Shown here: positions 49,956 through 55,218 of the stretch, piece after piece | Numbering within the stretch: the stretch's first letter is position 1 | How the letters are laid out: each line of letters opens with the position of its first letter | Sequence record: MN022785.1 | DNA length: 64,000 bases | Origin: Escherichia phage VEc20 | Strand: one strand, 5' to 3' | The notes under the pieces: model-generated | What the model saw: only the letters and a program-made list of their open reading frames with translations | Told to the model about the DNA's origin: nothing | Database searches by the model: none | Program-made: the position numbers and the translations under genes

Positions 49956-50606
49956 ATGGCTGATTTAAAAGTAGGTTCAACTGTAGGTGGATCTGTCATT
50001 TGGCATCAAGGAAATTTTCCATTGAATTCAGCCGGTGACGATGTACTCTACAAATCATTTAAAATATATTCAGAATATAATAAACCACAGGCAGCTGATA
50101 ACGATTTCGTTTCTAAAGCTAATGGTGGTACTTACACCGGTCCAATTACTATTAATTACGGGGTAAATAGTTATCTTCAATTAAGTAATAATGAAACCCC
50201 CATTCGAATTCGTTCTGGTGGCGGTACCGGTAATACTCTTGTAGTTGGCGGCTCTTCCGGCGGTATTAGTTTTAGACCTGCAGGTAGTGAAATCACTACT
50301 GGACAAATTACTATTACACCAGAAGGTTTGACAACATTTACCAGGGCTGTAACGGCTCCATCGGTAACTGTTACATCTACTCCTTCCGCAGCATCTGATG
50401 TTACTCGTAAAGATTATGTTGATGGAGCAATAAATACTGTTACAGCAAATGCAAACTCTAGGGTATTACGCTCTGGAGACACTATGACAGGAAATTTAAC
50501 TGCGCCAAACCTTTTTTCACAGAATCCTGCATCTCAACCTTCACACGTTCCACGATTTGACCAAATCGTAATTAAGGATTCTGTTCAAGATTTCGGCTAT
50601 TATTAA
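49956..50606 (+). CDS. 36: long tail fibre protein gp36
   Basis: 216-aa ORF between genes 35 and 37. Confidence 0.85.
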
Positions 50607-50614
50607 GAGGACTT

Positions 50615-53600
50615 ATGGCTACTTTAAAACAAATACAATTTAAAAGAAGCAAAACTGCAGGTCAACGTCCTGCTGCTTCAGTATTAGCCGAAGGTGAATT
50701 GGCTATAAACTTAAAAGATAAAACAATTTTCACAAAAGATGACTTAGGTAGTGTTATAGAATTAGGTTTAAAATATGGAGGAACAATTGATGGTTCTTTA
50801 ACTGTTAATGGAAACATAATTGGAAATTTAACAGGTAACGCTGCAACTGCAACGAAATTAAAAACAGCACGAAAAATTAATGGTATATCCTTTGATGGGT
50901 CAAAAGATATCACGCTAACTCCATCTGACATAAATGTCAATAGCACAACGTTTATAAAAAATAACGGCGAATTACCTGTTGATGCTAATTTAGATGAGTA
51001 TGGGCCTGTTGAAGAATATCTTGGAGTTTGGTCGAAAGCAACTTCAACCAACGCTCAACCAGCAAATAAATTTCCAGAAGAAAATGCTGTAGGTGTTCTA
51101 GAAGTATTTGTGGCCGGTCAATTTGCTGGTACTCAGAGATATACAACTAGATACGGAAATGTTTATATTCGTTCCTTGACTGCTACATGGAACGGAGTAA
51201 ACGGTCCGTGGAGTGCGTGGCGAAATATTCAATCTGGTACTCGTCCACTGTCAACAACGATTGATCTTAATGATCTAGGAGGCGCTGAACACCTTGGTTT
51301 GTGGCGAAATAGTTCAAATTCCATTGCTACCTTTGACAGAAATTTCCCAGAAGAAGGATCGTCAGCTCAAGGACTTTTAGAAGTATATGAAGGTGGAAAC
51401 TATTCTCGCACACAGAGATATACGACCAGATTTGGTGTTGTTTATACTCGCTGTCTTGCTGCTGCATGGGATGCATCTGCACCTAAATGGGGACCGTGGC
51501 AACAAGTCGGTAATGTCACACCGGCGACTTTCTATGACGGAGACCTGAATGATTTTAAAGCTCCTGGGTTATATAACATTTTAGGCACTGATGCCGTTAT
51601 TAACTGTCCTACCGGTGAAGGTTTGCCGACTGTTATTGTTGGTTTGCTGGAAGTTAAACAGCGTGCTTCTGGCGGTGCTATTTTCCAAAAATTTACTACT
51701 GCCGGAACGGGTGCAACTACTCGCGATCGTATTTTTGAGCGTGCATATACTGGTGGTGTGTGGGGTGCATGGAACGAAGTATATACATCTTATTCCCTGC
51801 CAATTACTTTGGGTATGGGTGGTATTAAATCTAACTTAGCAGAGTTAGACTGGCAAACATTTGATTTTGTTCCTGGTAGTATGTTTAGCGTTCCTTTGAA
51901 CAAAATAAAGAACATGCCAGCTAATATGGATTGGGGTACGATTGACGGAAACTTAATTATGTTTTCTGTTGGTCCTAGCGAGCACACCAGCACAGGACGT
52001 ACTGTTCAGGTTTGGCGTGGTACTGTATCCCAGACAAACTACCGTTATTTTGTCGTTCGTGTATTCGGTAATTCAGGAAATAGAACTTGCACAGTTCGTC
52101 GCGTTGTTCTTGAAGATGGTCGCCACAAATGGACAGCGCAACAAGATTTTAATGGCGCAGTTAACTTCGGTGCTCCTACCAATTTTAACTCTACTGTTAA
52201 CCTTAATAACACTACCACTTTTAAAACAGAAGTTAAATTTCGCTCATTGAATGCATTCCGTATGTATGGCGGAAAATTTGGTACAATTTTCCGTAATGAT
52301 GGAGAGAGTCTTTATATTCTTTCCACCGACGAAGATGATCAAGATGGAAACTTTAATAAAAATAGACCTTTCCGCTATCAATTAAAAACTGGCGATGTTA
52401 CTTTGGGTGGCACTAGTGGTGCTAACGTTTTAAAATTAAAACGTGATTCTCTCACCGCATTTTTTGGTGGTGATATTAACATGAAAGGCTTGATGACTTT
52501 TGACGCCGGACGTTTAGGATCACGAGATTATTTTAAATTTAACCATTGGGGTGATAGTAATAATGCGCGCGATAACATTATTCAGTTAGAAGACAGCAAA
52601 GGCGTTCATTTTTCCACTGAACGTACTTTAGCGACAGGTGCAATTAAAACTAAATTTTTTGGTGAAACCTTCACTGACGGTACATTATACCTAAATCAGA
52701 TGAATAATAGCTCTGAACGATTCTCTATCAACAATTGGGGAAATTCAGAAGTTGGACGCGCGGCAATCTTAGAAATCAGCGATTCACAAGGTTATCACTT
52801 CTATACGGAACGTAGAACAGATGACAGTTTGGTGTTTGATATATCCGGTGCGTTGACCGTGCGTGGACCTAACGGAATAACCGTCAAAAACTCAACTGGT
52901 GCACGCCATATCTGGTTTAGAGATGATAGCGAAACAGAAAAGGCTGTTATTTGGGTGACCGATGATGGTATTTTACATATACGAAATAATCGTGGGGGTT
53001 CATTTAGTCATCACTTCCAAGGTGCAATGATTAAAGCGGGAGAGCGTGTTCCTTATGCCGGAGATCAAGGGCTTATTCGCGGTGAAGTTTCTGGTGGTGC
53101 ATGGGTAGACTGGCGAGATCGTCCGGCTGGATTGTTGGTAGACTGTCAGGACTCACGAAGTCAAGCATATAACATTTGGAAAGCTACTCATTGGGGCGAA
53201 CAGCACCTTGCGGCGATGGGTGTTCATGCTGGCGGTGGTAATCCTCATGTTGTATTGCATGTGGGTGGGAGTGATTATGCATTTGCATCTAACGGTGATT
53301 TTACTGCTGGTGCTGCTGTATATTGTAACGACGTTTATATTCGTTCTGACCGTCGTCTGAAAAATAATGTTGAAGACTACGAAGAGAATGCGGTGGATAA
53401 GGTAAATAAACTCAAAGTTAAAACCTATGATAAAGTTAAATCTCTTTCTGACCGCGAAGTTATCGGCCATGAGATTGGTATTATCGCACAGGATTTGCAA
53501 GAAGTATTACCGGAAGCTGTTAGCACTTCTAGTGTCGGATCTCAGGATAACCCAGAAGAAATTTTAACAATTTCTAACTCTGCTGTGAACGCGCTTTTAA

Positions 53601-53698
53601 TTAAGGCTATCCAAGAAATGAGCGAAGAAATTAAAGAATTAAAAACGCCTTTCTTCACTAAAATTGCTCGCAAAATTAGTAATTATTTTAAATTCTAA
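50615..53698 (+). CDS. 37: long tail fibre distal subunit gp37 with C-terminal intramolecular-chaperone-like domain
   Basis: 1027-aa ORF; SDRRLK motif about 116 aa from the C-terminus. Confidence 0.9.
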
Positions 53699-53704
53699 CA
53701 ACAA

Positions 53705-53720
53705 GGGGCTTTGCCCCTTT
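53705..53720 (+). other. short GC hairpin between genes 37 and 38
   Basis: GGGGC-TTT-GCCCC followed by TTT; weak terminator or attenuator. Confidence 0.35.
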
Positions 53721-53730
53721 GGAGAAAATT

Positions 53731-54531
53731 ATGGCAGTAGTTGGAGTTCCTGGCTGGATTGGAAGTTCAGCCGTAAATGAAACGGGTCAGCGCTGGATGA
53801 GTCAAGCAGCTGGTCAATTAAGATTGGGTGTTCCTTGCTGGATGAGTCAATTTGCAGGTCGCTCAAGAGAAATTATTCATACACTTGGAGCAGACCATAA
53901 CTTCAATGGTCAATGGTTCCGAGATAGATGTTTTGAGGCCGGTAGTGCACCTATAGTGTTTAATATTACAGGTGATTTAGTATCATATTCTAAAGATGTT
54001 CCTTTATTCTTCATGTACGGGGATACGCCTAATGAATATGTTGTTCTTAATATTCATGGTGGTGTTCATATGTGGGGTCGTGGTGGTAATGGTGGATACA
54101 CTCACTCGGGAGGCGACGGTAACGGTACACAAGGTGGTCATGTTATTCAAAATGATATCGGTGGACGGCTTCGTATTTGGAACTACGGTGTTATAGCTGC
54201 TGGCGGTGGCGGCGGTGGTGGTATTGCATATCGTCCACACTCAGGGGCAAACTGGCAAGATATCGGTGGCGGTGGTGGTCGACCTTTCGGTGGCGCTGGC
54301 GGTGGCGGTTATTCCGGTGGTGCTGCTTCGTATGAAGGTCCGGGTGGTGGTTATGACTATGGTAACGCACACTCCGGCGCTGGTGGTAATGCTGGTGCTG
54401 CTGGTCAGAATGCATGGTCTGACGGCGGTAAAGTTCTTAAAGTTGGTGTTGGTGGTGCGTCTGGTCATGCAGTGTTTGGATCTTCTCCAACTTGGGGTGT
54501 TGTTGGAACAATTTACGGACCAAGAGTATAA
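53731..54531 (+). CDS. 38: receptor-recognising adhesin gp38 (T2-type, glycine-rich motifs)
   Basis: 266 aa from ATG 53731 ([19 protein letters not shown]...) with RBS GGAG; C-terminal half has poly-Gly blocks ([25 protein letters not shown]) separated by short variable segments. Confidence 0.8.
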
Positions 54532-54561
54532 TGTGAATAAATACCCTTAAAAGGAGGGTCT

Positions 54562-55218
54562 ATGGCAGCACCTAGAATATCATTTTCGCCCTCTGATATT
54601 CTGTTGGGTGTTCTAGATCGCTTGTTCAAAGATAACGCTACCGGGAAGGTTCTTGCTTCCCGGGTAGCTGTCGTAATTCTTTTGTTTATAATGGCGATTG
54701 TTTGGTATAGGGGAGATAGTTTCTTTGAGTACTATAAGCAATCAAAGTATGAAACATACCGTGAAATTATTGAAAAGGAAAGAAATGCACGCTTTGAATC
54801 TGTCGCCCTGGAACAACTCCAGATAGTTCATATATCATCTGAGGCAGACTTTAGTGCGGTGTATTCTTTCCGCCCTAAAAACTTAAACTATTTTGTTGAT
54901 ATTATAGCATATGAAGGAAGATTACCTTCAACAATAACTGAAAAATCACTTGGAGGATATCCTGTTGATAAAACTATGGATGAATATACAGTTCATTTAA
55001 ATGGACGTCATTATTATTCCAACTCAAAATTTGCTTTTTTACCAACTAAAAAGCCTACTCCCGAAATAAACTACATGTACAGTTGTCCATATTTTAATTT
55101 GGATAATATCTATGCTGGAACGATAACCATGTACTGGTATAGAAATGATCATATAAGTAATGACCGCCTTGAATCAATATGTGCTCAGGCGGCCAGAATA
55201 TTAGGAAGGGCTAAATAA
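54562..55218 (+). CDS. t: holin T
   Basis: 218-aa ORF, T4 holin length, one N-terminal TMD (VAVVILLFIMAIVWY) and a large periplasmic domain; RBS AAGGAGGG. Confidence 0.9.
   Translation: MAAPRISFSPSDILLGVLDRLFKDNATGKVLASRVAVVILLFIMAIVWYRGDSFFEYYKQSKYETYREIIEKERNARFESVALEQLQIVHISSEADFSAVYSFRPKNLNYFVDIIAYEGRLPSTITEKSLGGYPVDKTMDEYTVHLNGRHYYSNSKFAFLPTKKPTPEINYMYSCPYFNLDNIYAGTITMYWYRNDHISNDRLESICAQAARILGRAK

Follow-up and report, generated by a model that had tools for sequence, protein, structure and literature searches.

Gene 38 of Escherichia phage VEc20: a mosaic gene for an Ox2-like tail-fibre adhesin predicted to recognise OmpA

A stretch of 64,000 nucleotides from Escherichia phage VEc20 (sequence record MN022785.1), hereafter referred to as the window, was analysed with regard to its long-tail-fibre genes. 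The window as a whole is of Tequatrovirus type, with the best 24-kb match to Yersinia phage PYps5T (97.4%). The gene order g36-g37-g38-t is that of the canonical T-even long-tail-fibre locus, and the order g37-g38-t is common to phages Ox2, T2, T4, T6, RB32, PP01, and PST. The asiA gene also neighbours the locus, on the opposite strand. The features in and around gene 38 are as follows.

49956-50606: gp36, the neighbour within the tail-fibre locus.
50615-53698, plus strand: gene 37, the distal long-tail-fibre subunit of 1027 aa, a trimer carrying gp38 (Pfam Gp34_trimer and Peptidase_S74).
53348-53695, plus strand: C-terminal intramolecular chaperone of gp37, aa 912-1027, predicted to be removed by self-cleavage (Peptidase_S74 at aa 911-969, 2.8e-15).
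53704-53724, plus strand: GC-rich hairpin AGGGGC-TTT-GCCCCT at 53704-53718, followed by the Shine-Dalgarno sequence GGAG at 53721-53724 (from the sequence).
53731-54531, plus strand: gene 38 with its stop codon, coding for gp38 of the adhesin type (receptor-recognising protein, 266 aa) (ORF, Pfam, PHROG, and identity to Ox2).
54562-55218, plus strand: gene t, holin (Pfam Phage_holin_T, 1.5e-116).

Gene 38 starts with ATG and codes for 266 aa followed by a stop codon, and both the list of ORFs and the translation agree with the initial annotation as to the extent of this ORF on the plus strand and its N-terminus. The ATG is located 6 nt beyond the GGAG. A TTG start at 53719, four codons upstream, is given in the mechanical ORF list, but was rejected: it lies inside the Shine-Dalgarno and hairpin region, and the ATG is where the Gp38_N model of Pfam and the annotated gene of Ox2 both begin.

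The hairpin between g37 and g38, which lies right against the g38 Shine-Dalgarno sequence, has a folding energy of -13 kcal/mol (z = -1.17), which is not exceptional on its own, and it was not flagged by the terminator scan. A stem occupies the corresponding position in T2, T6, PP01, PST, EV240, and T4, where both the stem and the loop have other sequences and the loop is often UUCG; it is found even upstream of the unrelated g38 of T4. This conservation across phages suggests that the hairpin is real and represents a conserved intercistronic RNA element. On the other side of the gene, between g38 and t, the sequence AATAAATA at 54536-54543 aligns with the T4 late-promoter-like TATAAATA, which precedes the holin gene at the corresponding position; seven of the eight positions match.

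Two Pfam models cover gp38 from end to end of each profile, Gp38_N (PF21721) at aa 1-42 (2.9e-20; 72.4 bits with a cut-off of 25; positions 1-40 of 40) and GP38 (PF05268, "phage tail fibre adhesin Gp38") at aa 47-266 (2.5e-67; 227.3 bits with a cut-off of 25; positions 1-218 of 218), and the Pfam search reported no families in gp38 besides these two adhesin models. Further matches of the protein are to PHROG 2056 (5e-110), annotated as "tail fiber protein; host specificity", to the structure of the PP01 gp38 receptor-binding domain (9V85; 3.2e-65), and, at aa 5-263, to chain D of the S16 gp38 structure (6F45; 5e-43). The proposal made in the initial annotation, that the architecture is that of an adhesin and not that of the 183-aa chaperone of T4, is borne out by the Pfam, 9V85, and 6F45 matches. 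Homology to the chaperone-type gp38 had been named there as the finding that would speak against an adhesin; BLASTP against T4 gp38 (183 aa) gave no similarity, with the best E = 3.7 over 7 residues.

The name of the gene and its position between g37 and t, both common to T4, are the only grounds for regarding the gene 38 product as a non-structural chaperone of the T4 type, which would promote trimerisation of gp37 and be absent from the virion, leaving receptor binding to gp37. T4 gp38, a tail-fibre assembly chaperone, is neither a virion component nor a receptor binder (T4 record annotation; PMC6851490), and apart from name and map position it has nothing in common with gp38 of the window, to which its sequence is unrelated. 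In addition, the adhesin models and structures match over the full length, gp37 of the window has an S74 intramolecular chaperone of its own, and past its first 66 residues gp37 shows nothing but short and weak local matches to T4 gp37, none of them to the C-terminal receptor-binding tip of the latter. The probability of a T4-type chaperone is accordingly negligible. The full-length matches to adhesin models and structures, together with the lack of similarity to T4 gp38, thus support the adhesin reading and exclude the chaperone alternative. Membership of gp38 in the adhesin family of the T2/T6/Ox2/S16 type is confirmed at the level of sequence, with nothing found that argues against this assignment, and the long tail fibre of this Tequatrovirus is very probably capped by the gene 38 product, acting as a receptor-binding adhesin in monomeric form.

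Among the members of this family, the closest to gp38 are the "receptor-recognizing protein" of Escherichia phage ph0021, with 265 of 266 residues identical, and Ox2 gp38 (CAA29158), with 263 of 266 (99%); at the DNA level, gene 38 is 98.4% identical to the Ox2 gene 38 deposited in 1987 (GenBank X05675). The identities to other gp38 proteins are 89% for both RB32 and fFiEco06, 72% for T6, 63% for PP01, and 44% for T2. Ox2 gp38 has the same length of 266 aa and the same flanking genes, g37 and t, and differs by three substitutions, S14A, K174N, and R193G. The designation "T2-type" in the initial annotation is therefore adequate as the name of a broad class, but not as a statement of closest kinship, given 44% identity to T2 against 99% to Ox2, nor does it fit the N-terminal attachment domain, which is of the T6/Ox2/RB32 subtype and not of the T2 subtype. 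Such attachment subtypes of the gp38 N-terminus were described in PMC3157838. T2 gp38 has the same family membership and domain order, and keeps the C-terminal IYG-RV and the three Trp residues; its own subtypes of both the N-terminal attachment domain and the gp37 tip set it apart, as do its targets, FadL/OmpF and not OmpA (PMC3157838).

Glycine amounts to 69 of the 266 residues of gp38 (26%) and to 53 of the 140 residues at positions 111-250 (38%), with runs of 7, 5, 4, and 3 residues; the next Gly-richest ORF of at least 150 aa within the window contains 11% Gly. The codon GGT is used for 47 of the 69 glycines, and the peak of local GC content in the 3' half of gene 38 (0.53-0.60 versus the window average of 0.36) is due to the glycine codons, mostly GGT. 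Long overlapping ORFs of up to 114 aa are present in other frames of the Gly-rich region, on both strands of 54177-54550. As genes, these ORFs (for instance, 54206-54550 on the plus strand and 54191-54415 on the minus strand) were rejected as by-products of the stop-free GGT/GGC repeats.

The segmentation of gp38 was examined with an alignment of 17 distinct gp38 sequences, comprising those of the window, Ox2, ph0021, T2, T6, RB32, fFiEco06, PP01, PST, and eight IMG/VR contigs, and conservation of each segment was expressed as mean column entropy in bits. The layout of glycine-rich motifs (GRMs) and hypervariable segments (HVSs), as defined in PMC3157838 and shared by T2 gp38, was reproduced in this alignment. 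The segments of gp38, all on the plus strand, are listed below.

53731-53856: N-terminal attachment domain, aa 1-42 (Gp38_N); W9, W22, and W37 are invariant in the alignment.
53857-54075: beginning of the central beta-helix domain, aa 43-115, with good conservation (entropy 0.50 bits); aligns with the beta-helix of 9V85 and 6F45_D.
54076-54096: GRM1, GRGGNGG, aa 116-122 (entropy 0.26); G116, R117, G118, G119, and G121 are invariant.
54097-54132: HVS1, aa 123-134 (entropy 1.62), corresponding to PP01 loop-A by loop mapping.
54133-54201: conserved beta-helix turn between two polyglycine extensions, aa 135-157 (entropy 0.53), kept in PP01 and S16.
54202-54222: GRM2, GGGGGGG, aa 158-164 (entropy 0.12).
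54223-54264: HVS2, aa 165-178 (entropy 1.76, the highest of all segments), corresponding to PP01 loop-B and containing N174 (K in Ox2).
54265-54291: GRM3, GGGGGRPFG, aa 179-187 (entropy 0.04), invariant in the alignment.
54292-54375: HVS3, aa 188-215 (entropy 1.33), corresponding to PP01 loop-C and loop-D and containing G193 (R in Ox2).
54376-54405: GRM4, GAGGNAGAAG, aa 216-225 (entropy 0.77); G216, G218, G219, G222, and G225 are invariant.
54406-54447: HVS4, aa 226-239 (entropy 1.56), corresponding to PP01 loop-E.
54448-54528: GRM5, aa 240-250, and the C-terminal strand returning to the beta-helix, aa 251-266 (entropy 0.90 and 0.68, respectively).

Across the 17 sequences, the five GRMs are near-invariant (0.04-0.90 bits) and the four HVSs are hypervariable (1.33-1.76 bits), and conservation extends to the N-terminal 115 residues, the turn at aa 135-157, and the C-terminal 16 residues. 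In GRM5 and the C-terminal strand, the invariant residues are A247, V248, G250, P253, W255, G259, I261, Y262, G263, R265, and V266. The description of the C-terminal half in the initial annotation, glycine blocks split by variable segments, thus corresponds to a real and non-random pattern, as judged from the entropies. The equivalent of GRM2 in S16 gp38 is the long PGII helix 3, 151-GGGGGGGG-158 (PMC6851490).

The receptor-recognition loops A to E of PP01 gp38 (PMC12892980) were carried onto gp38 of the window through the alignment, with the following result.

Loop A: gp38 aa 122-130, in HVS1.
Loop B: gp38 aa 167-176, in HVS2.
Loop C: gp38 aa 191-194, in HVS3.
Loop D: gp38 aa 209-213, in HVS3.
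Loop E: gp38 aa 229-235, in HVS4.

Since the HVSs coincide with loops A to E, they are the predicted receptor-contacting loops of gp38; in PP01, loop-E is the main specificity determinant (PMC12892980). The alignment with T2, T6, and their relatives, which the initial annotation had proposed for mapping the variable segments, therefore places these segments where PP01 has its loops. The suggestion made there, that the variable segments are the likely host-range determinants, agrees with the alignment and with published work (PMC3157838, PMC6851490, PMC12892980, and bioRxiv 10.64898/2026.04.02.716166). In the last of these studies, exchange of gp38 from HVS2 onward sufficed to convert a phage of the T6 kind from the use of Tsx to that of OmpA.

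The gp38 proteins of Salmonella phage S16 (6F45) and E. coli phage PP01 (9V85) show clear homology to gp38 of the window over the full length of the sequence, although both bind OmpC and their loop sequences differ throughout from those found here; PP01 gp38 in addition has a K3-like N-terminal subtype. The two structures together define a fold with a helical attachment bundle, a five-ring beta-helix, and a polyglycine-II sandwich with distal loops. We infer the polyglycine-II sandwich fold of gp38 from homology to these solved structures, 9V85 and 6F45_D. A single-sequence AlphaFold2 model, made with no alignment as input, was unusable (pLDDT 32.6, pTM 0.20). At the attachment end, three conserved Trp residues of S16 gp38, located at the apices of helices a1-a3, are inserted into the gp37 trimer at three symmetry-equivalent pockets (PMC6851490), and W9, W22, and W37 of gp38 correspond to these three residues, the docking itself being a prediction. 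An internal direct repeat of 32 nt with 78% identity (53792-53823 and 53837-53868) encodes the second and third WMSQ Trp-bearing helices. The repeat hints that the pseudo-threefold docking bundle may have arisen by internal duplication.

The presumed partner of gp38 is encoded by g37, which has about 90-94% nucleotide identity to g37 of LF73P3, RB32, and ZN18. The C-terminal region of gp37 matches 6F45_A (3e-12), the fragment of S16 gp37 that was crystallised with gp38. In the sequence YIRS|DRRLK of gp37, the S|D-x-R-x-K motif aligns with that of T2, T6, Ox2, and S16 gp37, pointing to a predicted self-cleavage after Ser911 with release of about 116 residues. The predicted cleavage is consistent with the work of Drexler et al. 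1986 (cited in PMC3157838), who reported that gp37 of T2 is processed.

The close similarity to Ox2 does not extend over the whole region. When identities were calculated in 50-nt bins, the segment 53431-53880 of the window, which runs from the g37 3' end across the intergenic region to about codon 50 of g38, was 100% identical to RB32, and the segment from ~53831 to 54580 was ~99.5% identical to both Ox2 and ph0021. The receptor-binding half, at 54031-54530, has 9-15 differences from RB32 per 50 nt; in Ox2, in contrast, the DNA differs further upstream, in the g37 3' end, the region between g37 and g38, and the first ~50 g38 codons. Judged from these comparisons, gene 38 is a recombinant or natural chimera composed of an RB32-identical 5' part and an Ox2-like remainder. 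The bin identities place the crossover at ~53830-53930, in the neighbourhood of the linker that joins the attachment domain to the beta-helix domain. One of the three differences from Ox2 gp38, S14A, is accounted for by this mosaic.

The mature distal tip of gp37, at 52900-53347 of the window (aa ~765-911), is of the RB32/ZN18 subtype and very different from the tip of Ox2, T6, and PST. Ox2 gp37 has before its cleavage site a tip of another subtype, and over the last ~170 residues it is identical at 100 of 173 positions (58%), most of which belong to the chaperone domain that follows this site. An RB32/ZN18-type gp37 tip is in line with the crossover in gene 38, and matches the published scheme of modular exchange, in which the attachment module is inherited together with gp37 and it is the specificity module that is swapped. 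The N-terminal attachment domain of gp38 is nearly the same in phages with the RB32/ZN18 tip and in those with the Ox2/T6/PST tip. A single attachment subtype of gp38 is therefore combined with two or more subtypes of the gp37 tip.

As to the receptor, Ox2 is the classical OmpA-dependent phage, the adhesin of which is encoded by gene 38 (PMC12032242; PMC3157838), and RB32 is another OmpA-dependent phage (PMC3157838). The receptor-binding part of gp38 is that of Ox2 except for K174N in HVS2 and R193G in HVS3, and on this basis OmpA, and not FadL/OmpF as for T2, is most likely the receptor of the phage. Some additional sensitivity to LPS, with a complex OmpA-plus-LPS behaviour, was reported for both Ox2 and RB32 (PMC3157838), and the phage of the window may possibly depend on the LPS core in addition to OmpA. 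The stretch R-V-H-S-G-A is key for the OmpA "type 1" gp38 group (PMC12032242); gp38 has at aa 168-173 the similar sequence RPHSGA, and it is tentatively assigned to this group.

By alignment mapping, K174N falls in predicted loop B and R193G in predicted loop C, and this raises the question whether an adhesin of the Ox2 family has been shifted here from plain OmpA to other OmpA alleles, to a stronger requirement for the LPS core, or to a second porin, either through these two substitutions or through pairing with an RB32-type gp37. Single HVS changes can switch receptors in the gp38 adhesin family, as in RB68, where Q206L, a single substitution in HVS3, causes a switch from OmpF to OmpW (bioRxiv 10.64898/2026.04.02.716166). 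Furthermore, position 174 aligns with K168 of PP01, a proposed contact with LPS sugar (PMC12892980), OmpA-binding gp38 variants differ in the OmpA loop alleles they accept (PMC12032242), and the OmpA-plus-LPS behaviour of Ox2 and RB32 noted above would be compatible with a shift of this kind. On the other hand, the remaining HVS residues are all identical to those of Ox2, including the whole of HVS1 and HVS4, and in the close relatives ph0021, fFiEco06, L010, and L011 the usual residues are N174 and G193. With N174 and G193 in the majority among the closest natural relatives, the 1987 sequence deposited for Ox2 appears as the outlier, and a functional shift is possible, not likely; we consider a shifted specificity to be quite improbable. 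Recognition of plain OmpA thus stays the preferred reading.

A combination of both peculiarities may also be considered, namely, that gp38 is a chimera of an RB32-type attachment module, co-inherited with the RB32/ZN18-type gp37 tip, and an Ox2-type module in which K174N and R193G alter the accepted OmpA alleles or the dependence on the LPS core. This combined proposal is unlikely, but if it were true, nature would have provided in this phage a ready-made case of modules being swapped and of host range being tuned by point mutation.

The mode of action proposed for gp38 relies on the solved S16 and PP01 homologues and on the genetics of Ox2, T2, and T6, to which the family, layout, conservation, and partner gene observed in the window were added. 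The gp37 subunit would trimerise assisted by its own S74 chaperone domain at the C-terminus, and this domain would then cleave itself off after Ser911. A single gp38 monomer may then dock by fitting W9, W22, and W37 of its helical bundle into the three equivalent pockets of the newly formed gp37 tip. The glycine-rich motifs are predicted to form polyglycine-II helices that are stacked in a sandwich of three layers, and the HVSs would project as five short loops from the distal face of this sandwich. Binding of these distal loops to the extracellular loops of the outer-membrane protein OmpA would represent the reversible first step of adsorption.

In most T-even phages, gp38 is the main determinant of host range. 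An Ox2-type allele predicts OmpA as the receptor, and such a prediction is useful both for the design of phage cocktails without shared routes of resistance and for receptor-swap engineering. The gp38 family, its fold and modular logic, and this allele are already known, having been described since 1987, and the finding of gene 38 as such adds no new biology; the chimeric make-up of the gene is a small addition made here.

An example of a different rearrangement was found among the IMG/VR sequences. A contig of 167,948 bp (L017) encodes at positions 1501-2331 a gp38 of 277 aa in which the GRM2-HVS2 unit GGGGGGYYSPFSQMRLTF is duplicated in tandem, and its gp37 is the same as that of Yersinia phage vB_YepM_ZN18. 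It illustrates, in a natural sequence, how a unit can be duplicated through the GRMs.
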